From: Candidatus Eiseniibacteriota bacterium
GTDB lineage: Bacteria; Eisenbacteria; RBG-16-71-46
DNA length: 64,000 nt
Assembly (NCBI GenBank): GCA_963717505.1
Contig: OY970342.1
Span: forward strand, 512,001 to 576,000
Direction of reading: 5' to 3'
The translations under genes were made by a program, and so were the position numbers. The notes under the pieces are model-generated. The model worked only from the letters and a program-made list of their open reading frames with translations, made no database searches and was not told the origin of the DNA. Of this stretch, positions 6,828-62,535 are shown piece by piece (position 1 is the first letter of the stretch; each line of letters starts with the position of its first letter).

Positions 6828-6872
6828 GCAGGCGCGCACGCTACAGGCGCGCGGTCGCGACGCCAAACTTCG

Positions 6873-7757: not shown

Positions 7758-7787
7758 CGTGCCTCCGTGAAAGGTAGGGTAGTTCGC

Positions 7788-9743: not shown

Positions 9744-9769
9744 AGCATGGCGCCCTGGAGTCTGGCAGC

Positions 9770-11083
9770 GTGACCGAGCGGAGTTTTCCGGACGGGTTCC
9801 TGTGGGGTGCGGCCACGTCCCACCATCAGGTGGAGGGCAACGACTTCCACAACGATTGGTGGCGATTCGAGCAATTGCCGGGCTCGATCCACCGAGGTGA
9901 CGTCAGCGGTACGGCGTGCCGGCATTGGGAGCGCTACGACCAGGACTTCTCGCTGGCCGCGGGTGACGGCCACAACGCGCACCGTTTGTCGATCGCCTGG
10001 AGCCGCATCGAGCCCGAGCGCGGCCGGATCAACGGCGCCGCCGTCTCTCACTACCATGAAGTGTTCGCCTCACTCCGGCGCCACGGACTCCTGCCGATCG
10101 TCACGCTCCATCACTTCACGAATCCGCTGTGGATCGCCGACCACGGCGGCTGGGAGTCCCGGGCGACCGTGGATGCCTTCTGCGATTTCGCCAGGTTCTG
10201 TGGCGGCGAGTTCGGCGGGGAGGTGGACTGGTGGTGCACGGTCAACGAGCCCGAGGTCTACGCGTTCCGCGCGTATTCCGAAGGGCTTTGGCCGCCGCGA
10301 AAACGGGACGACGGGGCGGCACTGGGGGTCATCGCGAACATGCTCGAGGCCCATGGCCGAGCCTACCGCATCCTCCACGACGTCGACCGGATCGACGCCG
10401 ACGGCGACGGCCGGCCGGCGATCGTCGGCTTCGCCAAGCACCTGGTTCAGCTCGAGCCGGCGTGGCCGTGGTTTCCGCCGGACGCGCTGCGAGCGCGGAT
10501 CGAAGACCAGGTCTTCAACGCCTCGGTCATGAACGCGGCGGCAACCGGCGAGATCGCGCTGGCGATCCCTGGCGTGCGCCCGGTCCGGCGCAGGGTTCCC
10601 GAACTGGCGGGGGCCATGGACTACTTTGGCCTCAACTACTACACGCGCTGGCTGGTGAAGGCCCTTGGACCCGAGCCGCACGTTGCTCGTAGCGGGGCCC
10701 CGCTCAACGATTTGGGCTGGGAGCTCTACCCCGAAGGACTGGCGCTGGCGGTTCGCCGGGCCCACGAAGCCGCCCGCCGGGTGCGCCCCGACGTACCGGT
10801 CCTGGTCACCGAGCACGGTATTGCCGACGCGGCTGACAGCTTCCGACCCCGCGAACTGGTCGCAGCACTGACCGCCCTCCAGGGAGCCATCGCGGGTGGC
10901 GCCAACGTGCGCGGGTACCTGCACTGGTCCCTGATGGACAATTTCGAGTGGGCGGATGGATTCCGAGGGCGATTCGGCCTCTATGGGGTGGACTTCAGCG
11001 ATCCCGAGCGGCCGCGCACTCGTCGCCGGAGCGCGGAGCAGTTTTCGGCCATCGCGCGGAGCAACCGACTGCCGCCTGGTTAG
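9770..11083 (+). CDS. Glycoside hydrolase family 1 (beta-glucosidase-like)
   Basis: 'FPDGFLWGAATSHHQVEG', 'RLSIAWSRIEP', acid/base TVNEP, nucleophile VTEHG, 'WSLMDNFEWADG'. Confidence 0.92.
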   Translation: MTERSFPDGFLWGAATSHHQVEGNDFHNDWWRFEQLPGSIHRGDVSGTACRHWERYDQDFSLAAGDGHNAHRLSIAWSRIEPERGRINGAAVSHYHEVFASLRRHGLLPIVTLHHFTNPLWIADHGGWESRATVDAFCDFARFCGGEFGGEVDWWCTVNEPEVYAFRAYSEGLWPPRKRDDGAALGVIANMLEAHGRAYRILHDVDRIDADGDGRPAIVGFAKHLVQLEPAWPWFPPDALRARIEDQVFNASVMNAAATGEIALAIPGVRPVRRRVPELAGAMDYFGLNYYTRWLVKALGPEPHVARSGAPLNDLGWELYPEGLALAVRRAHEAARRVRPDVPVLVTEHGIADAADSFRPRELVAALTALQGAIAGGANVRGYLHWSLMDNFEWADGFRGRFGLYGVDFSDPERPRTRRRSAEQFSAIARSNRLPPG

Positions 11084-11403
11084 GAACACGAAACCTTGTG
11101 ACGCACTCGATGCAGGAATGGCCCGCTCCGAGTCCGAGTTCGGGGCGGCTGCCCCAGGAGAGAAACTAGGACTCGCCTCGGCCCACGATCTGAGGCTAGA
11201 ATCGCCAGCGGTCCCTGGCACCGCCTTCCCGCTAGGTTGGTCCAGGGTCGAAGTCGTTAGCGCGACAATTGACTCCGGTTCTTCCTCCCCCAGGGTGTCG
11301 GCGCTGACTCGAGCAACCATTTTCCGTTTGTCGCGTGTGACGGCTGGCATGGTTTGCTCGCCACCGGTCATGCACCGCGTCACACTTTGGAGAGTGTGTC
11401 CCC

Positions 11404-44796: not shown

Positions 44797-46211
44797 CCGA
44801 CCGAGCCTTCCATCTGGAGCTGGATCAGGCGGTTCATCTCGACCGCGTACTCCATCGGCAGCTCCTTGACGATCGGCTCGATGAAGCCCGAGACGATCAT
44901 CGCCGCCGCTTCTTCCTTGCCGATGCCGCGGCTCTGCAGATAGAAGAGCTGCTCGTCGCCGATCTTGGAGACCGTGGCCTCGTGGCCGATCGTGACGCGA
45001 TCCTCCTCGATCTCCATGTACGGATAGGTGTCGGAGCGCGACGCCTCGTCGAGGATCAGCGCGTCGCAGTTGACGGTGCTCTTGCGAGTCGACCGCGCCC
45101 TTCTGCACCTTGATCAGCCCGCGGTAGCCGGCCCGGCCGCCGTCCTTGCTGATCGACTTGGAGATGATCTTGCTGGTGGTGTGCGGCGCGCAGTGGATGA
45201 CCTTGCCGCCCGCATCCTGGTGCTGGCCCTTGCCGGCGAACGCGATCGACAGGATCTCGCCATGCGCGCCCGGCTCCATCAGGTAGACGCTCGGGTACTT
45301 CTGGTGATCTTGGAGCCGAGATTTCCGTCGACCCACTCCATCGTGGCGTTGCGCGTAGGCGACCGCGCGCTTGGTCACCAGGTTGTAGACGTTGTTCGAC
45401 CAGTTCTGGATGGTCGTGTAGCGGCAGCGGCGCGCCGCGCTTGACGATGATCTCGACCACCGCCGAGTGCAGCGAGTCGCTCGAGTAGATCGGCGCCGTG
45501 CAGCCCTCGACGTAGTGCACGTACGCGCCCTCGTCGACGATGATCAGCGTGCGCTCGAACTGCCCCATGTTCTTGGTGTTGATGCGGAAGTAGGCCTGCA
45601 GCGGGACGTCGACGTGCACGCCCTTGGGCACGTAGATGAACGAGCCGCCCGACCACACCGCCGAGTTGAGCGCCGCGAACTTGTTGTCGGTCGACGGGAT
45701 GATGGTGCCGAAGTACTCGCGGAACAGATCCTCGTGGTCGCGCAGGCCGTGGTCGGCCGAGAGGAAGATGACGCCCTGCTTCTCGAGATGCTCCTTGATC
45801 TTGTGGTAGACGACCTCGGAGTCGTACTGGGCGCCGACGCCGGACAGGAACTTCTGCTCGGCCTCGGGAATCCCGAGCTTGTCGAACGTGCGCTTCATGT
45901 CGGCCGGCACGTCCTCCCAGGTCTTGGCCTCGGTCGTCGGTCGGCTTGACGTAGTAGAAGATGTTCTGGAAGTCGATGGTCGACAGATCCGGACCCCAGG
46001 TCGGCATCGGCTTCTTGTCGAAGATCTCGAGCGCCTTGAGCCGGAAGTCGCGCATCCACTTGGGCTCGCCCTTCATGTCCGAGATCTGGGCGACGATGTC
46101 GCGGTTCAGTCCGCGGAGCGCCTTGAACACCGGCTTCTCGTCGTCGTGGAAGCCGTACTTCTCCGCGTAGCCATCACGCATGTCGAGATTGGGAGTTTCG
46201 GTCGTGCTCAT
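44793..46211 (-). pseudogene. sufB: Fe-S cluster assembly protein SufB, frameshifted as assembled (probably artefactual)
   Basis: Pieces in different frames: 'YGFHD', '[24 protein letters not shown]', 'GQFERTLI', 'EGCTAP', 'HEATVSKI', 'ELPMEYAVE', 'MEGSVG'. Confidence 0.92.
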
Positions 46212-47013
46212 TGGGCCGCCACCTCCTTGCCCTCGCGCACCCAGTCGTATCCGCGCTTCTCCAGCTCGAGCGCCAGCTCCGGGCCGCCGGAGCGCACGAT
46301 ACGACCGTCCACGATCACGTGGACATGGTGCGGCTTGATGTAGTTGAGGATGCGCTGGTAGTGCGTGATCACCAGCACGCCCACGTTCGGGCCCGGCCAG
46401 CGCGTTGACGCCGTCCGACACGATGCGCAGCGCGTCGATGTCGAGCCCGGAGTCGGTCTCGTCCATGATCGCGATCTCGGGCTTGAGCATCGCCATCTGG
46501 AGGATCTCGGCGCGCTTCTTCTCGCCGCCCGAGAAACCGTCGTTCAGGTAGCGGCTGGCGAACGAGTCGTCCATCTTGAGCAGCGCCATCTTCTCGCGGA
46601 GCAGGGTGCGGAACTCCTTGAGCGGGATGCCCTTGTGCTTGGGCATTGCACCGCTGCCGTTGGTCTCCGCCGGTACCAGGCGCGCGTTGAGCGCGGTGCG
46701 CAGGAAGTTGGCGACCGAGAGCCCGGGGATCGCGACCGGGTACTGGAACGCCATGAACAGGCCCTCGCGCGAGCGCTCGTCGGGCTCCATCTCGAGAATG
46801 CTCTCGCCCTTGAAGCAGGATGTCGCCCGCGGTGACCTCGTAGCGCGGATGACCCATGAGCGTGTTGGCGAACGTGCTCTTGCCCGAGCCGTTCGGCCCC
46901 ATGAGAGCGTGAATCTCGCCCTTGCGCACCTCGAGCGAGAGGCCCTTCAGGATCTCCTTGCCCTCCACCGAGACGTGAAGGTTGTCGACGATCAGTTCCG
47001 GCGTGTGGCTCAT
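46208..47013 (-). pseudogene. sufC: Fe-S cluster assembly ATPase SufC, frameshifted as assembled (probably artefactual)
   Basis: Walker A 'GPNGSGKST', 'AFQYP', 'FSGGEKKR', '[12 protein letters not shown]'; frame changes near 46810 and 46390. Confidence 0.92.
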
Positions 47014-48966: not shown

Positions 48967-49476
48967 GTGAAACTTGGGCATCGGGGCCGCTTCGGAGCGG
49001 CCATCGTGGGCGTCCTGTTCGTCGCACTGACGGCGACCGCTCACGCCACGGTTCAGGTCCGGCTGACTGCACACCGGATCCTGAAGGACGCGAAGGGTGC
49101 GGAATCGTTCCAGATCGCCGAGCAGATCAAGCCCGGCGAGTCCGTCGAGTACCGCGCGGTCTATCAGAACGACGGCGACGCCGGCGTCGACAAGCTGGTC
49201 GCGACGCTGCCGATTCCCGCCGGAACCGAGTTCATCGCAGGCACGGCGTCGCCGGCCGGCGCGCAGGCCAGCCTCGACGGCAAGACCTTCGCCCCCATGC
49301 CGCTCAAGCGCAAGGTTCGACTCAGCGACGGCCGTGAGGTCGAGCGCGAAGTGCCGACCGCCGAGTACCGCTTTCTGCGCTGGTCGCTGGGCAGTCTCGG
49401 TTCGCGCAAGGAGCAGATCGTCCGCACACGGGTTCGCGTGACCGCGCTTTCCGCCGGCACCGCGAGCGAACGGTGA
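48967..49476 (+). CDS. Exported single incomplete DUF11-like domain protein (gene A of DUF11 operon)
   Basis: GGAGG RBS at 48956-48960; signal peptide ending ATAHA; 'KPGESVEY...YQN.G...IPAGTEF...LRWSLGSL'. Confidence 0.8.
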   Translation: MKLGHRGRFGAAIVGVLFVALTATAHATVQVRLTAHRILKDAKGAESFQIAEQIKPGESVEYRAVYQNDGDAGVDKLVATLPIPAGTEFIAGTASPAGAQASLDGKTFAPMPLKRKVRLSDGREVEREVPTAEYRFLRWSLGSLGSRKEQIVRTRVRVTALSAGTASER

Positions 49477-52082
49477 CCGCCATGACCCACCTTCGACTCG
49501 ATACCCGACTTGGTTTCGCCCTGCGGGGAGCGTTGCTCCTCGCACTCGGAATCCTCGCGTTCGCGATTCCCGCGTCCGCTGCACCGCCCGCCGGCACCTC
49601 GATCGGCAACCAGGCGTCGGCCCAGTATCTCGACGCGACTTCGACGCTGCGCACCGCGACTTCGAACGTCGTCACCACCATCGTTCAGCAGGTCGCGAGC
49701 TTCACGTTGACCGCGAACGGCAGCGTCACGTCCTCGCCGGGCGGCCAGGTGATCTTCCCGCACACCCTGACCAACACCGGCAACGGCACCGACGACTTCC
49801 CGCTCACGCTGTCGAACGTGGTCGCGGATGACTTCGACCTGACCGGTCTCGCGATCTATCTGGACGCGAACGGCGACGGGGTGCCGGACAACTTCACCAA
49901 CCTGACGACCACGGGATCGGTCGCCGCCGGCGCCGCGTTCCGCTTCGTGGTGGTTGGAAGCGTGCCCGGAACCCAGGTCGGCGGGCAGATCGGCCGCATG
50001 CGGATCGATGCGTCCAGCACGTTCGACCCCGGCCAGGCCACGAACAATCTCGATCAGGTCACCGTCACCGGCAACGCAGTGGTCAGCGTGACCAAGGCGA
50101 TCAACCAGAACAACGGGGCTTCGCCGAGCGGTCCGCACACCTACACCCTGAGCTACAACAACTCGGGCAACAGCACCGCGACCGGCCTGCTGCTCACCGA
50201 CCTGGTTCCGGCTGGAATGACCTACGTGCCGGGCAGCGGTCGCTGGAGCGTCACCGGAGCCACGGTGCTGACCGACGGAAGCGCCGCCGACGCCCAGGGC
50301 GTCGTGCCGAACACCGTGATCTACGACTTCGGCGCGACCACCGGTGGCACGGTCACCGCCCGGATCGCGCAGGTGCCTCCGGGCGCCAGCGGGACCCTGA
50401 CGTTCGACGTCACCGTCAACGCGGGCCTCGGACCGCAGACCATCAGCAACAACGCGACCTACGCGTACAACGACGGTGCGGTCAACGTCGGTCCGTTCGC
50501 CACCAACTTCGCGCCGTTCACGGTCAACCAGGCGGTGTCGCTGACCTTCGCCGGTCAGACGATCCCGATCGCGGTCCAGGGCGCGACCATCTCGTACACC
50601 AACACGCTGACCAACACCGGCAACGGCACCGATCGCTTCGACATCGTGATCGGCGCTTCGACCTTCCCGGCCGGCACCAGCTACGCGCTATACCAGAGCG
50701 ACGGCGTGACGCCGCTGTCGGACACCAACGCCAACGGCACGCCGGACACCGGTCCGCTGGCCGCGGGCGCGGCCTACGATGTCGTTCTGCGACTGACGCT
50801 GCCGACGTCGGCTACCGGCGGTCCGTTCCAGGTCGACAAGACGGCGACCTCGATCTCGAACGTCGCGGTCAACGCCACGGCGACCGACGTCCTGACCACG
50901 ATCACGCCGAATGCCGTCGACCTGACCAACAACTCCCCCGGCGGCGCTGCGCCGGGCGCGGGCGCTGGTCCCGAACTTACGGCGGTGGTGACCAACGCCA
51001 CCAACCCGGCGACCACCACGCGCTTCACGCTGTACGTCAACAACTACAGCACGATCGCGGACAACTTCGATCTGGCGGCGAGCACGGACGGTTCGTTCGG
51101 CTCGATCACGCTGCCGGCGGGTTGGTCCGTGACCTTCTTCGACGCGTCGAACGCGATCATCACCAACACCGGCAGTATCGCCGGCAGCGGCAACGTGCTG
51201 GTCTACGCCGACGTCACGATTCCCGCGGGCTTTGCGGCGAGCACGAACAGCATCTACTTCCGCGCTCGCTCACCGGTTTCGCTGGCCGTCGATTACATCC
51301 ATGACGCGGTGACCGTCAACCCGGTTCGCACCCTGACGCTGGTGCCCAACAACTCCGGACAGCTGACGCCGGGCGGCGCGACCACCTACGCCCACATCCT
51401 GTCCAACACCGGCAACGTGCTGGAAGGTGACGGCGTGGCGAGCGTGGTTTCGCTGACCATGACCAACAACGCCGCCTCGTGGAGCTCGGCGCTGTACGTG
51501 GACAGCAACAACAACGGCTCGCTCGACGTCGGCGACGCCGCGATCGCCGATCTCGGCACCATCGGTGGGCTGGCCTCCGGCGCGAGCGTGCGTCTGTTCG
51601 TGCGTGTCTTCTCGCCGGCCGGTGCTCCACTCGGCGCCACCAACCTGACCACGCTGACCGCGACCACGACCAACGGCACCTACGTCTCGGCGCCGCCGGC
51701 GCTGGTGAACGCAACGGACCTGACCACGGTCCTCAACGGCCAGCTGCAGCTGGTCAAGCGACAGGCGCTCGATGCCGACTGTGACGGCCTTCCCGACGGA
51801 CCTTACTCGTTGGTGAACATCACGGCCGGTGCGATCCCTGACGCGTGCATCTGCTACGAGCTGGTGGTGACGAACGTCGGTACGGCGTCGGTGACCGCGG
51901 TGGTCGTCGACGACGCCACGCCCGCGAACACGACCTATTGGGATGCGGCGCCGGCGTCGAGCACCCAGGGCTTCGTCACCGCACCGCCGGGCAACACCGC
52001 CGGAACGATTTCCGCCGCGGTCGGCATCCTGGCGCCGGGTGCGTCGGCAACGATTCTGTTCGGAGTTCACATCGACCCCTAA
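49473..52082 (+). CDS. Exported DUF11/Ig-repeat protein (gene B)
   Basis: GTGA overlap with gene A; signal peptide; N-terminal 'AGTSIGNQASAQY...TSNVVTTIV'; 'TLTNTGNGTD.F' repeats; one complete internal DUF11 and one C-terminal partial DUF11. Confidence 0.85.
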   Translation: MTAMTHLRLDTRLGFALRGALLLALGILAFAIPASAAPPAGTSIGNQASAQYLDATSTLRTATSNVVTTIVQQVASFTLTANGSVTSSPGGQVIFPHTLTNTGNGTDDFPLTLSNVVADDFDLTGLAIYLDANGDGVPDNFTNLTTTGSVAAGAAFRFVVVGSVPGTQVGGQIGRMRIDASSTFDPGQATNNLDQVTVTGNAVVSVTKAINQNNGASPSGPHTYTLSYNNSGNSTATGLLLTDLVPAGMTYVPGSGRWSVTGATVLTDGSAADAQGVVPNTVIYDFGATTGGTVTARIAQVPPGASGTLTFDVTVNAGLGPQTISNNATYAYNDGAVNVGPFATNFAPFTVNQAVSLTFAGQTIPIAVQGATISYTNTLTNTGNGTDRFDIVIGASTFPAGTSYALYQSDGVTPLSDTNANGTPDTGPLAAGAAYDVVLRLTLPTSATGGPFQVDKTATSISNVAVNATATDVLTTITPNAVDLTNNSPGGAAPGAGAGPELTAVVTNATNPATTTRFTLYVNNYSTIADNFDLAASTDGSFGSITLPAGWSVTFFDASNAIITNTGSIAGSGNVLVYADVTIPAGFAASTNSIYFRARSPVSLAVDYIHDAVTVNPVRTLTLVPNNSGQLTPGGATTYAHILSNTGNVLEGDGVASVVSLTMTNNAASWSSALYVDSNNNGSLDVGDAAIADLGTIGGLASGASVRLFVRVFSPAGAPLGATNLTTLTATTTNGTYVSAPPALVNATDLTTVLNGQLQLVKRQALDADCDGLPDGPYSLVNITAGAIPDACICYELVVTNVGTASVTAVVVDDATPANTTYWDAAPASSTQGFVTAPPGNTAGTISAAVGILAPGASATILFGVHIDP

Positions 52083-52093
52083 CCCGGTATCCC

Positions 52094-55000
52094 ATGCAGA
52101 GTATCCGGGTTCATCCAGCACGACACGGGCGCCCCGCGGAGTTCCACTCCGCGACGGGCGCCGTCGTGCTGGTATGCGTATTGGCCGGCACTGCGTTTTT
52201 TTTCACGCGCGCGCACGCGATTCCATATACGCGCGGCACCGCATCCCCGCTGGCGACGGTTTCCGGGCCGCCGCCCGGCGCTCTCGTCGACAACACGGCG
52301 TTCGCGGCTGGACTCGACTCGGCAACCGCGACCCCGCTCAACGTCGCCTCGAACCCGGTGAGAACGATCGTCGGCACGTTCGAGCGGCTGGCATGGGACG
52401 GCCCGTTCGGAGCACAGGTTCCGCAGGGCACGAGAGCGACGTTTCGCCACCGACTGGCCAACACGGGCAACGTTTCCTCGGAAGTGCGCCTCGACGTCGC
52501 GAATTCGTTCGGCGACGGCTTCGATCTCGCGAACTTCTCGCTCGCCCGTGACGACGACGCCGACGGCGTCCCGAGCCCGGGCGACAGCTCGATCGCGCTC
52601 GGAGACGCGATTCTCGTGCCTGCCGACGCGGTCGTGGACCTGCTGGTCGGCTTCGACGTTCCGGCCGGCACTCCGGCGGCGGTCGCAGCCGAGTTCATGC
52701 TGTCGGCGACGACGCTCGACCAGGCGGTGGTCGCGGCCGTCGTCGACACCGTGCGCACTCCCGCCGGTCCGACGCTGGCGTTCTACCGCGACGGCACTTA
52801 TGCCGCAACCACGCAGATCGCCGCCGGCGGCGCGAACCTGTTCGTCGAGGCCGGCGCGGTCGGCTGCAACCTGCGGCCGTTTGCCGCCGATACGCTCGCG
52901 ATCACGCTCCGCTCGCTGCGCCTCGGCGACCTCGAGACGTTCACCGCCATCGAGACGGGACCGGCCACCGGGCGCTTCCGCATCGGCCCGTTCGTCGGCA
53001 CCGTGCTCACGCCGCCGGGCGTCACCCCCTACACCCTGGGTGTGCTCGAGACCGAAGCCAACGACGAGTTGGTCGCGAGCTTCGTCGGCTGTGGTGCGGT
53101 GCTCACCGAAGCGCGGCTGTGGATCGAGCCGGCCGGCGTCGCGTTCGATGCGCTCAGCAACTTCCCGGTGGCCGGCGTCCAGATCTCGCTGATCGACGTC
53201 ACCGGCCAGGGCAACGGCGGCTTCGCGGGCGGGCCGGCGCGCGTCTTCCAATCGGATGGCGTCACCCCGGCGCCCGACGCCGTCGTGACTGCATTCGATG
53301 GCCGCTATCTCTTCCCCTACGTGCTGGCCAGCACCTACCAGCTGAACGTGACGGCACCGGTCGACTACGCGTTTCCTTCGCAGGTCGCTCCCAGTGGGCT
53401 GCCCGTTGGCCACGTGATCGACGCTCAGGGCTCGTATGGCGCGCCGTTCGTGATCGCGACCGATGGCCCGCCGATCCGGCACGACGTTCCCCTCGATCCT
53501 CTCGGTGCGGCGGGTCTGCGCGTCGAGCTGACGGCGGCTCGGAACACGGCTGAGATCGGCGACGCCATCGATTTCACCGCGCGCGTGAGCAACGCTTCGG
53601 GCCGTCCGGTCGGGATGACTCAGCTGGCGATCGCATTGCCGCCGGGCTTTGCCTATCTGCCCGGCACGACCCGCCGCGACACGCTCTCTGCGCCCGATCC
53701 GGCCGGTGGGGCCGGCCCTTCGCTCGCGTTCGACGCCGGGGCCCTCGGCATCGGCGGTACCGCGACCGTTCGCTACCGGGTGCGCATCGGCGCCGGCGCC
53801 GAGCCCGGCGAGGCGCTGAGTCGCGCGAGTGCCACCGCGATCAACGCGACCTCGAACGTGGCCACGGCATCGGTGCTGATCGTGGACGGAGTGTTCGCCG
53901 ATGAAGCCGGCGTGCTCGGCACGGTGTTCGTGGACCTGAACGGCGATGGCCGCCGCAGTGCCGGCGACCCCGGACTTCCCGGCGTGCGCCTGGTGCTCGA
54001 CGACGGGACGTTTGCGGTCACCGACGGCGCCGGGCAGTACAGCCTCTACGGCCTGACGCCGCGCACGCACGGCCTGCGCGTCGATCCGTCGTCGCTCCCG
54101 GATGGCGCGGAAATGCTGGCCCTCGACCACCGCGATGCCGGAACGCCGGGGCTGCGCTTCGTCGATCTGCAGCGCGGCGACTTCCAGCGCGCGGACTTCG
54201 GCGTCGCGCCCGATTCGGCGACGCGCGTGGCGCCCGAGGAACGGCGCAAGGTGATCGCGTATTCCGGCGGCGAACTGGCCCCGACCGTTCGCCGTCCCCT
54301 GCCGGTCCAGGAGTTCGAGACCACGCCCGGCGATCCCCGGGCGCGGCCGACCTCAGGGGTCCTGGGCGAGTCGGGCCCGGCCCCGCTCGAACCACCGAAA
54401 CGCGGGGAATCCGCCGATCCGGCGACACCGACGATCTCGGCGCACGAAGGCGGAACGCGCGGGCGGCTTCCTCAGCCCGAGATGCCGGCTTTGCTGGCGT
54501 CGAACACCAGCGACCTCATCGATCCGGCGGACGGACTGTCCGGCACTCAGCCTTTCGGCTTCGTGGGCCGGCGGAACGGCGACACACTGAGCACCGACCA
54601 AATCACCGTGCGGGTTGCCGGACGCGCCGCCTTCGCGCTCGAGCTGCGCGTGAACGGCGACCTGGTGCCGCTGACCCGCGTCGGCACGCGACGCATCGAC
54701 GCCGACGCCGGGCTCCAGACCTGGGACTACATCGGCGTCCGCCTGCACCCGGGGCTCAACCAGCTCGAGCTGACCGAGCGCGCGACTGACGGCACCGCCG
54801 GCGCGCACGCCACGCTCGCGCTGGTGGCTCCGGACCGCCTGGGAACGCTCGAAATCACAGCACCCGAACGGGCCCCCGCCGACGGTCGCCGGCTCGCGTT
54901 CGTGCAAGTGCGAGCCGTCGATGAGCGCGGGGTGCCGATTGCCGGCCGCCTGGCGGTGACGCTGGTCGCCACGTTCGGCGAGTGGCAGATCGACGACGCT

Positions 55001-57586
55001 GATGGCTTCGCGCCGGGGGTTCAGACGGTGATCGAAGGCGGGGTCGCGGAGTTCGGACTCAGGACCCCGCGCGATCCGTGCCTGGCGACGATCACAGTCG
55101 CCGCCAGCGACCGACGCGCCGAGACTCAGATCGAATTCGTGCCCGACTTGCGGCCGCTGGTCGCGGTCGGCACCGCGGAATGGCAGGTGGGCTGGAACCA
55201 TCGCCTGAGCGGCTTCGCGACCTCGTATCGCGCGCGCACCGGATTCGAGCAGGCGTACTCGAGCATGGTCACCGAAGGCGTCGACGGCCGGCTGAGCGGC
55301 GGGGCGCGCGCGTCGCTGTTCGCCAAGGGTCGCGTCGGTCGCGATCTGCTGTTGACGCTGGGCTACGATTCCGATCGGCCGTCCGACCTCCGCCGCTTCC
55401 GCGACATCCAGCCCGACGCGTTCTACCCGCTCTATGGCGACGGTTCGGTGCGCGGCTACGACGCGCAGTCGTCGGGCAGCCTGTTCGCACGGCTCGACCG
55501 TCGCGGCGCGTCCCTGCTCTACGGCGACTTCATCACCGCCTCGTCGGGCAGTGCGCGCAGCCTGTCGACCTACAGCCGCAGCCTGACCGGAGTGCAGCAG
55601 CACTTCGAGAACCGGCGGACACGGGTGGACGCGTTCGCCAGCCGCGGCCGAGCGCGGCAGACGGTCGACGAGCTGCGCGGTCTCGGCGTCTCCGGCCCCT
55701 ACACTCTGTCGCGCACGCCGATCGTCGAGAACAGCGAACAGGTCGAGATCCTGGTGCGCGATCGCAACCAGCCGGGCGTCGTGCTGTCGGCGTCGGCGCG
55801 AACGCGATTCACCGACTACGAGGTCGACCCGTACACCGGCCGCCTGCTGTTCAAGCAACCGATTCCCAGCCACGACGGCGACCTGAATCCGGTGTCGATC
55901 CGCGTGGCCTACGAGACCCGTGACGGCGGCAATCCCTACTGGGTGGGCGGCGTCGAGACCCGCTTCAAGATCGATCCGCGGCTCGAAGTCGGCGGCAGCG
56001 TGGTCGCCGACGACGACGTCACGAACCCCTATCGACTCGGCAGCCTCTATGCCGGCGCGCGCATCGACGACGCGACCGAAGTCGAGGGCGAGTTCGCGCG
56101 CACCACCGCCGGCGGCAGTCCGGCGCTCGGCTGGCGGATGGAGGCGCGTCACGATCGCGTCGGGACCCAGGGCCGCTTCTGGGCGGCGAGCACTGACACC
56201 GGTTTCGCGAACCCGCACGCCGGCTACGCGCCCGGGCGCACGGAGCTGGGACTGCGCTGGTCGCATCGCCTCGACGAGCGCGCTCGTTTCCTGTCGGAGG
56301 GCATGTACACGGCCGAACCGGGGGGCGATCGCCGCGGCGGATTCCTGGTCGGCGTCGATCGCGGGCTCAGCTCGACGACGCGCGGCGAGTTCGGCATGCG
56401 TATCGCCGCCGAGCAGCGGGCGGTGGGCGAATCCGATCCGGCCAGCGTGGCACTGCGCGCGAAGCTCACGGCACAGGCCCCGGGCCACCCCGAACTCAGC
56501 GGCTTCGCCGAGCTCGAGCAGGACATGATCGAGTTCGACCGCCGACTGGCGGCGGTCGGCGGTGAATACCGCTTCAGCGCACGCGGCCGCCTGTACGCGC
56601 GCCACGAGCTGGCCTCGACCCTCACCGGCCCGTTCGCGCTGACTGCCGGGCAGCGCCGCCTGGCCACGGTGGTCGGAGTCGACGCCGACGTGACGCGCGG
56701 CGCCCATCTGTTCAGCGAATACCGCCTGGCCGACGCGTTCGCTGCCCGCGAGGCCGAGGCGGTGCTCGGCCTGCGGAATGCCTGGCAGGTCGGCGACTAC
56801 CGGATCAACACGTCGTTCGAGCGCGTGAGCCCGCTCGATGCGACCTCGACCGGGCCGACCACCGCGCTCGCCGGTGGCCTCGAAGCCATGGCCGACCCCG
56901 CGATCAAGATGGCTCTGCGCATGGAAGGTCGGACATCGCGGGCGAACGACGGCTACCTGACGACGATGGCCGCGGCGTTCCGGGTCGATCGCGCGTGGAG
57001 CGTGGTCGCGCGCACGCTCGCCGACCTCAACACCGGCCGTGACCGCGGCAACACGTTGCGGCTGCGGAACCAGATCGGCTTCTCGTTCCGTCATCCGGAC
57101 CTCGAGGTGCTCGATGCGCTCGGGCGCTACGAAATGCGCCTCGACCGCGAGCCGACCGACGCCACGCGCCGCACGCGCCACCTGGCGCACGTCCTTTCGT
57201 TCCACACCACCGGTCGCCTGTACGAGTCGTTCGAGACGTCGTTCGCCTGGGCGGCAAAGCTGGCCGACGAGAGCGCGGACGGCCTGGTCACGCACTCGAC
57301 CGCACAGTGGCTACACGGCCGCGTCGCGCGCGGATTCGCCAAGCACTGGGACGCGGGAGTTCACGGGAGCACGCTGATGGGCTCGGGATCGGAGCGCACC
57401 GGGCTCGGCGCCGAGATCGGCCGGCAGATGCAGCCGGGCGTCTGGATGTCGGCCGGCTGGAATCGCTTCGGCTACTTCGATCCCGATCTGCCCGACGAGG
57501 CCTACACGCGCGCCGGCTTCTACCTGCGGGTGCGCGCCCGCTTCGACGAATCGATCGTCGGCCGCATCGCCGGAGGTGGCCGATGA
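52094..57586 (+). CDS. Large outer-membrane protein: N-terminal Ig/DUF11/SdrD-B domains + C-terminal beta-barrel (gene C)
   Basis: Signal peptide; 'GTVFVDLNGDG...PGLPGVRL.L.DG....TD..GQYS'; 'FYPLYGDGS....DAQS...LFARL'; many amphipathic strands from about 55140; ends 'GFYLRVRARFDE'. Confidence 0.8.
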   Translation: MQSIRVHPARHGRPAEFHSATGAVVLVCVLAGTAFFFTRAHAIPYTRGTASPLATVSGPPPGALVDNTAFAAGLDSATATPLNVASNPVRTIVGTFERLAWDGPFGAQVPQGTRATFRHRLANTGNVSSEVRLDVANSFGDGFDLANFSLARDDDADGVPSPGDSSIALGDAILVPADAVVDLLVGFDVPAGTPAAVAAEFMLSATTLDQAVVAAVVDTVRTPAGPTLAFYRDGTYAATTQIAAGGANLFVEAGAVGCNLRPFAADTLAITLRSLRLGDLETFTAIETGPATGRFRIGPFVGTVLTPPGVTPYTLGVLETEANDELVASFVGCGAVLTEARLWIEPAGVAFDALSNFPVAGVQISLIDVTGQGNGGFAGGPARVFQSDGVTPAPDAVVTAFDGRYLFPYVLASTYQLNVTAPVDYAFPSQVAPSGLPVGHVIDAQGSYGAPFVIATDGPPIRHDVPLDPLGAAGLRVELTAARNTAEIGDAIDFTARVSNASGRPVGMTQLAIALPPGFAYLPGTTRRDTLSAPDPAGGAGPSLAFDAGALGIGGTATVRYRVRIGAGAEPGEALSRASATAINATSNVATASVLIVDGVFADEAGVLGTVFVDLNGDGRRSAGDPGLPGVRLVLDDGTFAVTDGAGQYSLYGLTPRTHGLRVDPSSLPDGAEMLALDHRDAGTPGLRFVDLQRGDFQRADFGVAPDSATRVAPEERRKVIAYSGGELAPTVRRPLPVQEFETTPGDPRARPTSGVLGESGPAPLEPPKRGESADPATPTISAHEGGTRGRLPQPEMPALLASNTSDLIDPADGLSGTQPFGFVGRRNGDTLSTDQITVRVAGRAAFALELRVNGDLVPLTRVGTRRIDADAGLQTWDYIGVRLHPGLNQLELTERATDGTAGAHATLALVAPDRLGTLEITAPERAPADGRRLAFVQVRAVDERGVPIAGRLAVTLVATFGEWQIDDADGFAPGVQTVIEGGVAEFGLRTPRDPCLATITVAASDRRAETQIEFVPDLRPLVAVGTAEWQVGWNHRLSGFATSYRARTGFEQAYSSMVTEGVDGRLSGGARASLFAKGRVGRDLLLTLGYDSDRPSDLRRFRDIQPDAFYPLYGDGSVRGYDAQSSGSLFARLDRRGASLLYGDFITASSGSARSLSTYSRSLTGVQQHFENRRTRVDAFASRGRARQTVDELRGLGVSGPYTLSRTPIVENSEQVEILVRDRNQPGVVLSASARTRFTDYEVDPYTGRLLFKQPIPSHDGDLNPVSIRVAYETRDGGNPYWVGGVETRFKIDPRLEVGGSVVADDDVTNPYRLGSLYAGARIDDATEVEGEFARTTAGGSPALGWRMEARHDRVGTQGRFWAASTDTGFANPHAGYAPGRTELGLRWSHRLDERARFLSEGMYTAEPGGDRRGGFLVGVDRGLSSTTRGEFGMRIAAEQRAVGESDPASVALRAKLTAQAPGHPELSGFAELEQDMIEFDRRLAAVGGEYRFSARGRLYARHELASTLTGPFALTAGQRRLATVVGVDADVTRGAHLFSEYRLADAFAAREAEAVLGLRNAWQVGDYRINTSFERVSPLDATSTGPTTALAGGLEAMADPAIKMALRMEGRTSRANDGYLTTMAAAFRVDRAWSVVARTLADLNTGRDRGNTLRLRNQIGFSFRHPDLEVLDALGRYEMRLDREPTDATRRTRHLAHVLSFHTTGRLYESFETSFAWAAKLADESADGLVTHSTAQWLHGRVARGFAKHWDAGVHGSTLMGSGSERTGLGAEIGRQMQPGVWMSAGWNRFGYFDPDLPDEAYTRAGFYLRVRARFDESIVGRIAGGGR

Positions 57587-60500
57587 GCCGCGACCTCCTC
57601 CGCCGCATGGCGAGCGCGTGGGTCCGGATTCTCGGCGGGCTCGCGGTGGCCGGTTGCCTGTCGGCATCGCCCGCAGCGGCCCAGGTGTTCCGCAACTTCA
57701 CGCCGCGATTCACCACCAACACCACCGGCGACATCACCCTGGTCGGCAACACGATCATGAGCTGCAGCGCCGGCGGCGGCTGCACCACCGCACGCAACGG
57801 CGGCGGCGGCAACCAGAACAACAACGATTGGAACATGCAGTACGTGGACGTCGACGGCGACGGCACCACGTTCAGCTCGAGCCGCGCCACGCTCACGCTC
57901 CCGGTCGGCGCCACGGTGGTGTGGGCCGGACTCTACTGGGGCGGCAACTCCAACAACGCCAACCGCAACACGTGTCGGTTCGCGTCCCCGGCTGCGGCCT
58001 ACGCGACGCTGACCGCCGATCAGCTCGACAACACCGGGTCGGCATACTCGGCGTTCGAGGACGTCACGGCGCGCGTCCAGACCGGCGGCAGCGGCCAGTA
58101 CACAGTGGGCAACGTCTACTCGACCACTGGCACCAACAACTACGGCGGCTGGTCGCTGGTGGTCGTTTATCAGCTCGCGAGCGCGCCGGCTCGCAACCTG
58201 GTGGTGTTCGACGGCTACGCCGAAGTCGCCCCCGGAGCCTCGGTCAACATCGCGGTCAGCGGCTTCCTGACCCCGCCGGCCGGCGCGGTGAACACCACGC
58301 TGGGTGCGGTGACCTACGAAGGCGACCGCGGCTTCACCGGCGATGACTTCGACCTGAACGGCATCGTGCTCTCCGACGGCGACAATCCGGCCAACAACTT
58401 CTTCAACAGCTCGATCGCCCTCCTCGACGTCCAGTTCACCAACAAGAACCCGAACTACGTGAACCAGCTCGGCTTCGACGCCGACCTGGTGAACGCGAGC
58501 GGCATCCTGGCCAACGGCGCGACCAGCGCCACGATCCAGCTCAGCTCGACCGACGATCGCTTCTACCCGGCCGCGGTCACGTTCGCCACCGACCTCTACG
58601 TGCCGGTGTTGAGCGGCAACGGCTTCACCAAGCTGGTCGCCGATTTGAACGGGGCGCCGGCCCGTCCGGGCGACGTCCTCGAGTACACAGTGTTCCTGCG
58701 CAACACCGGCAACGACGCGTCGCTCAACACCGTCGCGCGCGACACGATCCCGGCGAACACCGCCTACGTGGCCGGTTCGATGACCGTGCTCAACGGTCCC
58801 AACGCCGGCGCCAAGAGCGACGGCGCTGGCGACGACCAGGCCGAGTTCGACGTCGCCGGCAACCGCGTGGTGTTCCGCCTCGGGACCGGAGCCAATGCGG
58901 CGAATGGCGGCCAGCTGAGCCCGGGGGTTCAGACCTCGTTCCGGTTCCGCGCGGTCGTCACCTCGCCGTCGCCGACCGGCACCGTGGTCTCGAATCAGGC
59001 GGTCGCCAACTTCAACGCCGCCCAGCTCGGCACGGCACTCGTTTCGATCAGCGATGCCGACACGATCACCGCCGGCACGCAACGCACCAACGTCACGGTG
59101 ACCGCGCCGACCCTGTCGGGCGTGGTCTTCGAAGATCCGAACTACGGCGGTGGGGCCGGCCGGAATCGCGTGACATCGTCGGGAGTCGTGCGGCCGGGCG
59201 CGCGCGTCGAGCTGTACAACGCGGCCGGCGCGTTCCAGTCGTTCAGCACCACCAATGCCTCGGGGGTCTACAGCTTCAACGGCTGGGGCCCGGGCGGCTA
59301 CACGGTACGCGTGGTCAACAGCACGGTGAGCTCGTCGCGCGCCGGCGCGGTGGCCGGGCTGCTCCCGGTGCAGACCTTCCGCACCAACGCCGCGACCGGG
59401 GTTGCGGTGGACGACGCGCAGCGCGTCGGCGGCGAGAGCCCCGGACTGCAGGACGCCGGATCCAACCTGACCAACGCGACTTTGGCGTCGCTGACCACCG
59501 CGTCCGCAACCCCGCAATCGATCGCACCGGTGACTCTGGGCACCGCCGATCTGTCGGGGGTCGAGTTCGGTTTCAACTTCAGCACCATCGTCAACGCCAA
59601 CGACAGCGGTTTCGGGAGCCTGCGCCAGTTCCTGATCAACGCCAACGCACTGGCGAACACCGGCCTGGCCCAGGCCGGACTTCCGGCCGGGATCGAGCAC
59701 GCGATCTTCATGGTCACCGACGGTGCGGCGCACCCGGGCCTGCGCGCCGGCCTGCCGAACCTGCTGACCGGCGGCGTGGTCGCGATCAACGTGCTCAGCA
59801 CGCTGCCGTCGATCACCGGTGCATCGACCACCATCGACGGCGGGCTCCAGACCGCGAACGTCGGCGACACCAACCCCGGCACGCTCGGGACCGGGGGCTC
59901 GGCCGGCGTCGACCTGCTGTCGCTGCCGGCGGTCGCCCGGCCCGAGGTCGAGATTCGCGACGGCGCCGCCCTGGCGCTCGGGCTCGACCTCATGGCGAGC
60001 GACATCACGCTCGCCCGTCTCGCGGCCTACGGCTTCGGCAACGCCCCGGGAAACAACAACAGCGCCGTGGTACGCGTCTGGACCAATGGCCTGCGCGCGA
60101 TCCTCGACGGCTGCGTCCTGGGCACCAGCGCCTCGAGCTTCACCGATCCCGGCGCCGGCGTGCGTTCGGGCGGCGACGTCGTGCGCTCGGCGGGGGGCGA
60201 CGACGGCATTGTGCGCAACAGCCTGATCGGATTCGGCGCCGGGTCGGGCATCGCACTCGCCGGCACCTCCAATGGCTGGCAGATCCTGACGAACGAGATT
60301 CGTGGCAACGCGATCGGCAACTCGACGCGCGACGGCATCAGCATCGAAGCCGGCGCCACCGAGTTGGTTCGCGGCAACCTGATCGCGAGCCACGAGGGCT
60401 GCGGCATCGACGCCGGAGCCAGTACCGGCGGCAACACCTTCGTGAACAACACGGTGACGCGCAGCGGCCTCGGTGCGGGTGCCGCCGAGACTCCCGGCGT

Positions 60501-62535
60501 GCGGGTCGGCGGCAGCACCAGCCTGGTGGATCGCTGCATTCTGTTCGACAACTACGGCGCGGGCGTGATGGTGGCCTCGGGCGGCACCGCGGTCACGATC
60601 ACCCGCAACTCGATCTACGGCAATGGAACGATCAATGGCGGCCTCGGTGGCCCGAGCGGCCAGGTCGGCATCGATCTGCTGACGGCGGCCGATACCCCGG
60701 CCCACGGCACGGCCCCATACTTCACGATCAACGACAACGGCGATGGCGACGGCGGCGGCAACGGTCTACTCAACTTCCCGGTGCTCGAGTCCGCGAGCAT
60801 CGCCGGCAGCAACGTCACGCTCACCGGCTGGGCGCGTCCGGGGTCAGCGATCGAGGTCTTCCTCGCGAATCCGGACCCCTCCAGCTTCGGCGAGGGTCAG
60901 ACTTATCTTCTGACCGTCACCGAAGGCTCGGGCGCGGACCTCGACGCGACGACCGGTCCCTATTCCGGACCGATCAACGGCGTGAATCAGGGCACAGACA
61001 ACACCAATCGCTTCCGCTTCACCGTACCGGCGCCGGGGGGCCTGACCTCGGGCGTGCGTCTGACCGCGACCGCGACGGTGGCGCTCGCGACTTCCGAGTT
61101 CTCCGGACTGGTGGTGGTCGGCGGAGGCTTCGCCGTCAGCGGGTTCGGTTACCAGGACCTCGACCACGACCTGCAACGCGACGCGGTCGAGAGCGGCATC
61201 GGCAGCGCGCTGTTCGTCAAGCTCGTGCCGGTGTCATCGCCGGGTTCGGCGCAGTCGGTGGCCAGTGTCGACCCCGGAACCGGTGTGTGGAGCATCGGCT
61301 TCGTTTCCTCGGGCAACTACACGCTGGTGCTCGATGACAACAGTCTTGTCTCCGACGTCACGCCCAATTACCCCGCCGGCTGGATCGGAACCGAAGCCCC
61401 GGCGGGAACGCGCCCCCTGACCGTGACCGCAGTCAACGTCTCCGACCAGGACTTCGGCCTCTGGCACGGCGGTCGAGTCGAGGGCGTGGTGTTCGACGAC
61501 GATGGCGCGGGCGGCGGCGCGGCGAACGACGGCGTGCGGCAGGGTGGCGAGGCCGCGATCGCCGGGGTTCGCATGCGGCTCGCGGCCGTTCCGTGCGCCG
61601 GAGGATTGTGCGACAGCACGCTGACCGACGGCGCCGGGTTCTATGCCCTGTGGATCCCGCATGCGGCTTCGGGCGCCACCACTGAAGTGCGCGAAGCCAA
61701 TCCGTCGGTGTGGATCTCGACCGGGGGCGGCGCCGGGACGACCGGGGGCAGCTACGTGCGCGCGGCCGACGCGGTCTCTTTCGTTCCCCTGAGCGGCAAC
61801 CTCTACACCGGCGCCGTCTTCGGCGACGTGGCGCCGAACCAGTTGGTGCCTCCCGGAATGCAGACCGGGACCGAAGGCTCCGTCGTGTTCCATCCCCACA
61901 CGTTCGTCGCCGGGAGCGCCGGCAGCGTGACCTTCGGGCTCGGGCAGGCCCCGGCGCCGGTGATCCCGGGCTGGGGGGCTCAGCTCTATCGCGACCTGGA
62001 CTGCGACGGCGCCATCGACGCCGGCGAGCCGGCGATCGTCGCGCCCCAGGCGGTCACCGGCGGCCAGACGATGTGCCTCGTACTACGGCACTCGATTCCG
62101 GCCGGAGCACCTCTTGGCGCGCTCGAGCAGGTCACGGTTTCGGCAAGCATGAGCTACACCGGGGCCGCACCGCCGCTCGTCACCGTCGTTCTGCTCGACG
62201 ATCGCACCACCGTGATGGACGCCGGCACGTTGCGGATCGTCAAGAGCGTCAGCTCGGGCACCGCGCTGCCGGGCGATCTGATCACCTACACGATCACCTA
62301 CACCAACCTGGGCCCGGCTCCGGTCTCGGCGATCGAGATCCAGGACATGGTGCCGGGCTACACGATGTTCCAGTCCGCGGGCTGCGGCGGGCTGGGCAGC
62401 GGACTCTCGGCGTGCGGGGTGACCACGCAGCCGCCGCTGAACGGAACCGGACCGTTGCGTTGGACCCTGACCGGCGCGCTCGATCCGGGCGCAACCGGCA
62501 GCGTCACGTTCCAGGTACAGGTCGAGACGCCCTAG
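57583..62535 (+). CDS. Large exported adhesin-like protein: N-terminal beta-sandwich, DUF11, SdrD-B, right-handed beta-helix, C-terminal partial DUF11 (gene D)
   Basis: GGAGG RBS and ATGA overlap with gene C; signal peptide; 'WAGLYWGG', 'GGWSLVVVY'; 'SGVVFEDPNYGGG'; 'GSLRQFLINAN'; N/G-rich beta-helix 'TITRNSIYGNG...GIDL'; 'LNFPVL'. Confidence 0.85.
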   Translation: MSRDLLRRMASAWVRILGGLAVAGCLSASPAAAQVFRNFTPRFTTNTTGDITLVGNTIMSCSAGGGCTTARNGGGGNQNNNDWNMQYVDVDGDGTTFSSSRATLTLPVGATVVWAGLYWGGNSNNANRNTCRFASPAAAYATLTADQLDNTGSAYSAFEDVTARVQTGGSGQYTVGNVYSTTGTNNYGGWSLVVVYQLASAPARNLVVFDGYAEVAPGASVNIAVSGFLTPPAGAVNTTLGAVTYEGDRGFTGDDFDLNGIVLSDGDNPANNFFNSSIALLDVQFTNKNPNYVNQLGFDADLVNASGILANGATSATIQLSSTDDRFYPAAVTFATDLYVPVLSGNGFTKLVADLNGAPARPGDVLEYTVFLRNTGNDASLNTVARDTIPANTAYVAGSMTVLNGPNAGAKSDGAGDDQAEFDVAGNRVVFRLGTGANAANGGQLSPGVQTSFRFRAVVTSPSPTGTVVSNQAVANFNAAQLGTALVSISDADTITAGTQRTNVTVTAPTLSGVVFEDPNYGGGAGRNRVTSSGVVRPGARVELYNAAGAFQSFSTTNASGVYSFNGWGPGGYTVRVVNSTVSSSRAGAVAGLLPVQTFRTNAATGVAVDDAQRVGGESPGLQDAGSNLTNATLASLTTASATPQSIAPVTLGTADLSGVEFGFNFSTIVNANDSGFGSLRQFLINANALANTGLAQAGLPAGIEHAIFMVTDGAAHPGLRAGLPNLLTGGVVAINVLSTLPSITGASTTIDGGLQTANVGDTNPGTLGTGGSAGVDLLSLPAVARPEVEIRDGAALALGLDLMASDITLARLAAYGFGNAPGNNNSAVVRVWTNGLRAILDGCVLGTSASSFTDPGAGVRSGGDVVRSAGGDDGIVRNSLIGFGAGSGIALAGTSNGWQILTNEIRGNAIGNSTRDGISIEAGATELVRGNLIASHEGCGIDAGASTGGNTFVNNTVTRSGLGAGAAETPGVRVGGSTSLVDRCILFDNYGAGVMVASGGTAVTITRNSIYGNGTINGGLGGPSGQVGIDLLTAADTPAHGTAPYFTINDNGDGDGGGNGLLNFPVLESASIAGSNVTLTGWARPGSAIEVFLANPDPSSFGEGQTYLLTVTEGSGADLDATTGPYSGPINGVNQGTDNTNRFRFTVPAPGGLTSGVRLTATATVALATSEFSGLVVVGGGFAVSGFGYQDLDHDLQRDAVESGIGSALFVKLVPVSSPGSAQSVASVDPGTGVWSIGFVSSGNYTLVLDDNSLVSDVTPNYPAGWIGTEAPAGTRPLTVTAVNVSDQDFGLWHGGRVEGVVFDDDGAGGGAANDGVRQGGEAAIAGVRMRLAAVPCAGGLCDSTLTDGAGFYALWIPHAASGATTEVREANPSVWISTGGGAGTTGGSYVRAADAVSFVPLSGNLYTGAVFGDVAPNQLVPPGMQTGTEGSVVFHPHTFVAGSAGSVTFGLGQAPAPVIPGWGAQLYRDLDCDGAIDAGEPAIVAPQAVTGGQTMCLVLRHSIPAGAPLGALEQVTVSASMSYTGAAPPLVTVVLLDDRTTVMDAGTLRIVKSVSSGTALPGDLITYTITYTNLGPAPVSAIEIQDMVPGYTMFQSAGCGGLGSGLSACGVTTQPPLNGTGPLRWTLTGALDPGATGSVTFQVQVETP

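Follow-up and report, generated by a model that had tools for sequence, protein, structure and literature searches.

A candidate covalently locked surface fibre built on a naturally split CLIPPER domain in a diderm bacterium of the phylum Eisenbacteria

We analysed a 64,000-nucleotide stretch of DNA, hereafter the window, from a Candidatus Eiseniibacteriota bacterium (GenBank assembly GCA_963717505.1, contig OY970342.1, positions 512,001 to 576,000 of the forward strand), which holds four adjacent genes named here A (48967-49476, 169 residues), B (49473-52082, 869 residues), C (52094-57586, 1830 residues) and D (57583-62535, 1650 residues). Positions are those of the window and lie on its plus strand unless stated otherwise. 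Our data, all of them computational, suggest that this operon probably encodes a self-assembling surface fibre of the order D-B(n)-C, whose subunits would be joined by a naturally split CLIPPER (DUF11) domain and locked by spontaneous Lys-Asn isopeptide bonds. A preliminary description of this DNA, made from the letters alone, had already proposed this arrangement, with an acceptor on D, a donor and an acceptor on the repeated B, and a donor followed by a barrel on C; it is favoured by the way in which the two halves join on one domain profile, by the 97-99% conservation of the residues involved, by natural fusion proteins and by a model of the donor-acceptor complex.

The four genes are co-directional and form a compact operon. 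The stop of A overlaps the start of B by 4 nucleotides, B and C are separated by 11 nucleotides, and C and D overlap in an ATGA; furthermore, Sec-type signal peptides were recognised by eye on all four proteins, in agreement with the previous description of tightly linked exported genes. Pfam and NCBIfam scans matched DUF11/TIGR01451 in each of the proteins. With Pfam DUF11 (PF01345, cut-off 24.6), B (44.3 bits) and D (43.8 bits) scored above the cut-off and C (20.5 bits) and A (18.5 bits) below it, and with TIGR01451 (cut-off 24) B (49.8 bits), D (72.9 bits) and A (25.0 bits) were above and C (17.1 bits) below.

The split domain and its triad

DUF11 has been renamed CLIPPER and described as a CnaA-like domain; in PDB 9IFR a bond between Lys715 and Asn806 is catalysed by Asp748, and bonds of the CnaA-like type link the first and the penultimate strands, which lie on opposing sheets (PMC12617251, in part). 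To describe the domain in this system we used a profile of 154 positions built from 20 complete Lys-bearing copies, namely domain 2 of B and the first DUF11 domain of D, taken from the window and from orthologues. Complete copies were found within B (50070-50531; profile 1-154, 230 bits) and within D (58609-59082; profile 2-153, 168.6 bits), as had been claimed. The termini match the same profile in pieces. The C-termini of the 13 B and 7 D proteins all align to profile positions ~7-118/119, and the match stops at the end of the protein, whereas the mature N-termini of all 13 B proteins align to positions 118/119-154 (8-14.6 bits). The N-termini of C behave in the same way at weak scores, 9 of 13 starting at positions 118-122 with 1-5 bits; one C N-terminus starts at position 119 with 1.0 bit. 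Acceptors end at ~118 and donors begin at 118/119 of the 154 positions, so that the two pieces abut at one profile position, just where the preliminary description had placed the beginning of the donor.

Shuffle controls were applied to the single donors of the window. The score of the B donor was reached by 2 of 2000 shuffled sequences, none of them at the same place of the profile, and that of the C donor by 43 of 2000, 4 of them at the same place. Additionally, hhalign placed the B donors on positions 118-154 of the full domain at E 4.4e-4. The Pfam model of DUF11 (114 positions) gave a similar picture, since residues 1550-1649 of D cover positions 2-86 only, whereas residues 475-594 of C, in an internal domain, cover 2-114. 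Judged by these alignments, the cut in the terminal copies of the domain falls ahead of the penultimate strand, and different proteins carry the two parts.

In the window, B (49473-52082) consists of a signal peptide, a donor, five complete beta-sandwich domains and an acceptor. The donor (residues 37-72; 49581-49688) corresponds to the penultimate and last strands of the DUF11/CLIPPER domain (profile 119-154), and the acceptor (residues 754-869; 51732-52079) to a domain that lacks these last two strands. D ends in an acceptor at its extreme C-terminus (residues 1546-1650; 62218-62532), which aligns to profile positions ~10-119 and to DUF11 2-86 of 114, and profile searches revealed no donor in D. 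The donor of C (residues 57-95; 52262-52378) gave a weak profile match at positions 120-149 and its motif is conserved in orthologues; moreover, a model of the donor plus first domain matches C at E 1.9e-14.

The Lys-Asp-Asn triad is whole in the complete domains of B and D, as in domain 2 of B, where Lys208-Asp243-Asn326 would form a bond of the intramolecular type, and is divided between chains in the terminal copies. The acceptors hold Lys762 (51756-51758) and Asp814 (51912-51914) in B and Lys1554 (62242-62244) and Asp1588 (62344-62346) in D, and the predicted isopeptide Asn is Asn46 (49608-49610) in the B donor and Asn67 (52292-52294) in the C donor. The profile of the C family matches PDB 9IFR at E 5.1e-9, and by way of the internal domain of C and the residue numbers of the published structure (PMC12617251) the equivalent of Asn806 falls on an 'xNxA' motif, whose Asn is Asn326 in B domain 2, Asn46 in the B donor and Asn67 in the C donor. 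As the Asn806 equivalent lies on this motif, the split parts Lys and Asp, in the acceptor, from Asn, in the donor. A count of chain positions in 9IFR fits for Lys715 and Asn806 and is off by one for Asp748. Single-sequence searches of the PDB with B domain 2 and the first DUF11 domain of D matched nothing relevant, and the profile of these domains found 9IFR weakly (E 0.15); therefore, the mapping onto 9IFR rests on the C-family profile.

The residues of the divided triad are strongly conserved. A HMMER search of 1.84 billion representative sequences with the B family returned 3399 relatives at E<=1e-3, of which 634 reach E<=1e-30, and conservation was scored on 130 proteins (780-1050 residues, no pair more than 50% identical) among the best 150 relatives. 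In this set the donor Asn46 is Asn in 127 proteins and a second donor residue, Asn65, is conserved in 125, while the acceptor Lys762 and Asp814 are conserved in 128 and 129, respectively. The C-terminus falls in the last column of B in 108 of the 130 and within 5 residues of it in 126. For comparison, the intact triad of domain 2 is found in 126 (Lys), 129 (Asp) and 127 (Asn) proteins. Conservation along B is highest in the donor, where the mean share of the commonest residue is 0.66, against 0.48-0.55 in the domains. In the acceptor, the Lys and Asp (alignment positions K18 and D70) and a conserved pair of cysteines (C26 and C48) are invariant in 13 sequences. The acceptor of D keeps its Lys, its Asp and its end column in 7 of 7 sequences, and among 50 C-family homologues the first donor Asn is Asn in 48, and the second is Asn in 39 and Asp in 9.

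Complementarity of the halves, fusions and relatives

To model the donor-acceptor complex, the acceptor of B (residues 745-869) was combined with a partner made of the donor and its own first domain (residues 37-202), each with a 13-row alignment. The interface score ipSAE was 0.87 in all three runs compared with 0.01 for the best of three controls, which supports the pairing of B donor and B acceptor that had been predicted from the sequence; the calibration mark of the tool was reached by 58 of 80 solved complexes and by 2 of 110 mismatched pairs. The partner had a predicted local distance difference test score (pLDDT) of 94, and at least 95% of the contacts were shared between runs. Contacts of the partner were confined to its residues 1-38, which are the donor (B 37-74), plus residue 68 (B 104), and this indicates that in the model the donor is inserted in the acceptor and not packed on its own neighbouring domain. 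Acceptor strand 807-814 pairs antiparallel with donor residues 48-53, and Lys762 contacts donor residues 64/65. The strand register of the model would place Asn46 on the same side as Asp814.

Natural fusions show the same order of pieces. Four proteins carry B units in tandem, P0124 (3865 residues), P0125 (2023), P0394 (3437) and P0395 (3128), and they contain 4, 1, 3 and 1 acceptor-to-donor junctions, respectively (9 in total), with a spacing of 2-6 residues. At these junctions the acceptor model ends at position 123-125 of 125 and the donor model starts at position 2-6 of 166. Hence the two halves make up one ordinary complete domain and the next unit follows head to tail, as proposed for the separate chains, with as many as five B units in a row. 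Such fusions are rare: three of the ten proteins from the region search have tandem B units (P0125, P0394 and P0395), while P0124 came from the B-family HMMER search. P0124 and P0125 begin with a donor and end in paired 'GDLNCDG...DD' repeats, which we take to be dockerin-like; these ends hint at a different mode of anchoring in another lineage.

The survey of relatives, which covered the 130 B-family proteins and 12 related loci, found the donor/acceptor pattern conserved, as the preliminary description would lead one to expect. All 12 related loci keep A, B and C in synteny, and D is next in the 10 that extend far enough. Within the phylum, B was found in 49 of 206 species genomes, all in two families of one order: 45 of 88 genomes in one family (f1), 3 of 10 in the other (f3) and 0 of 108 elsewhere in the phylum. 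These tallies include an unpublished genome (G026, one of the three in f3) whose sequence is in no alignment. Most genomes have one B per operon. C is spread over two overlapping open reading frames in 3 of the 12 related loci (L015, L020 and L025), and B is in three pieces in one genome (G012) and in two in another (G004); these broken copies may be draft-assembly frameshifts or decaying genes.

Fibre assembly, alternatives and known systems

In the assembly that we propose, A-D would be exported by Sec. B and D end in an acceptor, the first part of the domain with its first-strand Lys and catalytic Asp, and mature B and C start with a donor, the last two strands with the Asn of '(I/V)xNxA'. 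A donor would dock into the acceptor of another chain and complete its beta-sandwich, and the rebuilt domain would unite Lys, Asp and Asn, so that the Lys-Asn bond would form by itself with loss of ammonia, by the same chemistry as within intact CLIPPER domains. Since D only accepts and C only donates, the order of the chain would be D-B(n)-C, with D at the distal end, B repeated, and C holding the fibre in the outer membrane through its giant barrel. In this regard, eight Omp85-family matches over the cut-off in the host genome indicate that the organism builds an outer membrane and confirm the diderm background assumed at the outset. Growth could occur at the base, like in chaperone-usher pili, with D entering first and C terminating the fibre, or at the tip, from a surface-exposed donor of C, with D as the terminating subunit; both modes fit the topology. 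As judged from its sequence, A probably binds donor strands reversibly; by holding them it would stop premature polymerisation in the periplasm, or it would act as a non-covalent cap.

Several observations weigh against this proposal. Single donors score weakly on the profile (8-14.6 bits in B and 1-5 bits in C), and for 3-4 of the 13 C donors the match lies at another place. The list of the 25 pairs with the lowest error in the complex model does not include Lys762-Asn46, and this pairing was deduced from the strand register only. Furthermore, halves of a known fold can be expected to pass such a complex prediction; the model therefore speaks for complementarity and not for binding in the cell, and it cannot separate an inter-chain from an intra-chain fit. 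No RNA sample is listed for B. The 1650-residue D, with its beta-helix, would have to cross the outer membrane, and the barrel of C had no recognisable relative in structure and profile searches. Lastly, the earlier description of the system as sortase-free holds for the operon, since domain scans found no sortase domain in A-D or the flanking genes and no C-terminal LPxTG is present (B ends ...HIDP and D ends ...VETP, with loose internal motif matches only); it does not extend to the whole genome, which has one sortase homologue (G000:C1:1272607-1272969, 97.7 bits) ~0.7 Mb from the operon, its sole sortase-family match.

The best-surviving alternative, which we nevertheless regard as unlikely, is that no polymer forms and that the proteins make up a defined three-chain adhesin, either C-B-D with a single B or C-D, in which the split would serve modular assembly or the exchange of tips. 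The single B per operon in most genomes is consistent with this, as is the fact that D and C are able to pair only with another chain. In addition, orthologues of D vary in the middle and keep the head and the acceptor: two shorter relatives, in loci L016 (reverse complement 6809-11380, 1524 residues) and L024 (8453-11896, 1148 residues), retain both ends and differ between them, which suggests from sequence that D tips are exchangeable. However, B holds both a donor and an acceptor, the complex model supports the pairing of B on B, as many as five B units follow one another head to tail in the natural fusions, and no sequence feature would restrict B to one copy.

It is quite improbable, in our assessment, that the strands complement each other without a covalent bond, Lys, Asp and Asn being structural residues of a non-covalent fibre like chaperone-usher pili. 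Some DUF11 domains have been described without the bond (PMC12617251, in part), and both A and the internal domain of C in the window do without the triad. Nevertheless, the triad is 97-99% conserved exactly at the rebuilt split domain and its residues match those of the solved cross-linked CLIPPER domain, and the joint loss of all triad positions in A and in the internal domain of C is the pattern expected if the residues act as a unit.

C-terminal Ig-like (immunoglobulin-like) domains direct substrates of type IX secretion, and conserved termini stand here beside a giant barrel with Foldseek matches, among other large barrels, to SprA of the type IX translocon (template modelling score, TM, ~0.16-0.18). 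Yet the idea that the termini are no fibre partners, with B closing on itself, to which the complex model is blind, or with termini that the C barrel recognises as sorting signals, is the least probable of all, because D without a donor and C without an acceptor cannot be explained by self-closure, the fusions align an acceptor with the donor of the next unit head to tail, and a sorting signal would need no Lys-Asp-Asn triad of a cross-linking domain.

The proposed covalent fibre D-B(n)-C was compared with the known systems. Covalent pili are known from monoderms, where the bonds are made by sortases, and diderm pili are held by non-covalent strand complementation. Like sortase pili, this fibre would consist of Ig-like subunits linked covalently by Lys-based isopeptide bonds, with tip, shaft and base encoded in one operon, but the operon lacks sortase and LPxTG, the bond would be a Lys-Asn side-chain bond within a rebuilt domain, and the host is diderm. 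With chaperone-usher pili it would share an acceptor-only tip, a shaft subunit with donor and groove, a terminating subunit, a base in the outer membrane and independence of ATP, whereas those pili are non-covalent and donate a single strand, and here two strands of a different fold would be donated. Thus, an N-terminal extension that completes the preceding subunit is shared with them by analogy only. Their chaperone gives a strand, while A instead resembles the groove. The barrel of C matches the usher FimD only as a generic barrel (Z 13.4-15.6, root mean square deviation (rmsd) 9-13 A), and the usher family PF00577 had no match in the host genome (86.7% complete), nor did the Pfam scan of C find an usher domain. 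Intimin/invasin and autotransporters (type V) likewise combine an outer-membrane barrel and an Ig-like stalk in one chain, but their barrels have 12 strands, whereas that of C has ~36-40 strands and is C-terminal, with an N-terminal stalk ending in a donor.

To our knowledge, only two loosely similar natural cases have been described, the archaeal threads and BsaA, both of other folds. In the archaeal threads (Saci_0406) an N-terminal donor strand completes the fold of the neighbour and a sortase-independent intermolecular isopeptide bond connects Asp24, through its alpha-amino group, with Asn57 of subunit n+2 (PMC9715654, in part). BsaA of Clostridium perfringens, of the TasA family, follows an 'exchange and lock' scheme, in which an N-terminal donor strand likewise completes the adjacent subunit and an isopeptide bond that uses Glu then joins the two without a sortase (PMC11580942, in part). 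These systems differ from ours in fold and chemistry, in hosts without an outer membrane, and in having neither a barrel anchor nor CLIPPER domains. The Pfam scan of A-D found no TasA-type family, a relation to Saci_0406 or TasA not having been specifically sought. With no usher, no sortase or LPxTG in the operon, a fold other than that of threads and TasA, and a barrel without family, the A-D system appears to be a member of none of the chaperone-usher, sortase, thread/TasA and type V systems.

The closest relatives by fold are the CLIPPER/DUF11 fibrillar adhesins (9IFR; PMC12617251, in part), which share the fold family and the Lys-Asp-Asn triad with the complete copies in B and D. Known domains of this family form their bond inside a single chain, whereas here the terminal copies are cut and the bond would join chains. 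The grappling-hook protein of Litorilinea is a single chain of 49 DUF11 domains and not a split system. SpyTag/SpyCatcher, SnoopTag/SnoopCatcher and the 'molecular welding' of RrgA are reportedly laboratory-made splits of Gram-positive adhesins. In these engineered pairs too, a tag with one reactive residue docks and an isopeptide bond forms spontaneously, but here the split would be natural, the donor has two strands (~36 residues) and the purpose would be fibre assembly. Our literature searches turned up neither split CLIPPER domains nor diderm pili that join strand complementation with a covalent bond, with the proviso that Tables S2 and S3 of PMC12617251 might list truncated terminal domains, and a 2026 review (PMC13721041), in the part available, mentions non-covalent chaperone-usher pili and sortase pili only. 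Text matches to 'DUF11' in the tafi paper were discarded, as they refer to DUF1102.

We tentatively go one step further, with clearly less confidence than in the fibre itself, and suggest that the operon may represent an unrecognised, self-contained class of pilus, which would combine a two-strand tag/catcher split, A as a reverse chaperone that shields donors, and the barrel of C as both anchor and conduit for folded subunits. If the fibre assembles as proposed, a diderm combines covalent locking and strand complementation without any enzyme, and the split-domain principle of SpyTag-type tools arose in nature. At 50% identity the family comprises at least 634 clusters, which would then form a large natural library of covalent ligation pairs and a source of candidates for orthogonal parts. 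It would also give a function to many 'DUF11 repeat proteins' and to an unannotated family of giant barrels in an uncultured phylum.

The anchor, the tip, protein A and the locus

C (52094-57586) consists of a signal peptide, the donor, stalk domains, a Pro-rich linker, two Ig domains and a giant barrel. An AlphaFold2 model of residues 840-1830 (51-row alignment, mean pLDDT 78.8) showed two Ig-like domains followed by a barrel of ~790 residues (55160-57538), with ~36-40 strands in the DSSP strand list, and bears out the earlier prediction of a barrel anchor. No Pfam or NCBIfam family matched this barrel. Structure searches did not assign it to a family either: the Foldseek matches (SlpA, LptD, SprA, FimD and MtrB, TM ~0.1-0.26) are generic large barrels, and those ranked by Z score (OpdQ/FimD, Z ~13-16, rmsd 9-14 A) are equally generic. 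The Ig-like domains directly before it (54611-55153, pLDDT mostly 84-91) resemble intimin D0-D1 and invasin (6tpl, Z 11.8, rmsd 2.2 over 93 residues; 1f00, Z 11.3, rmsd 1.9 over 92 residues), and PF09134 was already annotated on some C homologues. The internal DUF11 domain of C (residues 475-597; 53516-53884; DUF11 2-114 of 114) is complete, and by comparison with the family consensus it has, in the window, Leu, Ile and Ser at the triad positions, where most of 50 homologues have Lys, Asp and Asn. Among 8000 candidates scored, 874 were C homologues, and the named ones belong to Candidatus Eisenbacteria. One C-type protein, P0245 (2272 residues), matches residues 16-604 of B in its N-terminal half and continues with a stalk and a barrel, which by sequence makes it an intermediate architecture between B and C.

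The N-terminal head of D (57682-58617) was modelled as a jelly-roll beta-sandwich (pLDDT 69.4, predicted TM score 0.78). In the fold search the best hit reached Z 9.2 and carbohydrate-binding-module (CBM) entries Z 5.6-6.6, in keeping with a generic jelly-roll, and DUF3344 appeared as a lead with a score of 0.87-0.88. From the model, carbohydrate binding by the head is possible; the jelly-roll and CBM-like matches are too generic to assign the label 'adhesin' to D. Behind the head, the complete DUF11/CLIPPER domain carries Lys, Asp and Asn (TIGR01451, 72.9 bits), Pfam also found SdrD_B-like domains, and a right-handed beta-helix (60208-60684) was matched by PF13229 (3.6e-11) and NosD (6.2e-7). 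A lipoprotein assignment for D was rejected, as the Cys of 'VAGC' in its signal peptide is not a conserved residue; the orthologues have A-x-A|Q sites.

A (48967-49476) is an exported protein of 169 residues made of a single acceptor-type half-domain, with a TIGR01451 score of 25 bits (cut-off 24); its Pfam scan gave DUF11 only. The family alignment (112 homologues plus A of the window) matched the domain profile with an hhalign probability of 97%, residues 56-164 corresponding to positions 19-122, and A has no counterpart of positions 123-154. Leu occupies the position of the Asp and the conserved first-strand Lys is missing, which agrees with the earlier statement that A is an acceptor without the reactive residues. 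By its sequence, A could possibly be a reversible cap or a chaperone for donor strands. We found 179 homologues of A, those listed being mostly 163-175 residues long (range 139-188). In a protein atlas the clusters nearest to A are small TIGR01451-type proteins (166-183 residues), commonest in Pseudomonadota (score 0.97, an unconfirmed lead); half-domain proteins related to A may therefore exist in cultured bacteria.

Finally, the host genome is a single contig of 4.16 Mb, and profile searches of it found no acceptor or donor modules outside the A-D operon. The genes on both sides of the operon are on the opposite strand and unrelated to it, a MerR regulator and Suf genes upstream and an amidohydrolase downstream, and A-D thus look like one self-contained unit. 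The G+C content of the region is ~0.68-0.72. DNA that is nearly identical occurs in sediment and soil samples. A promoter scan returned 0 promoter-like sites and 6 terminator-like sites, compared with 7.3 expected, and was uninformative. In the upstream flank, a SufC-like ATP-binding cassette (ABC) ATPase is split over two overlapping frames of the minus strand (45375-47013): the frame 46369-47013 matches ABC_tran 1-53 and the frame 45375-46790 (471 residues) matches ABC_tran 57-135, a split which may reflect a frameshift, an error in the assembly or an inserted stretch.

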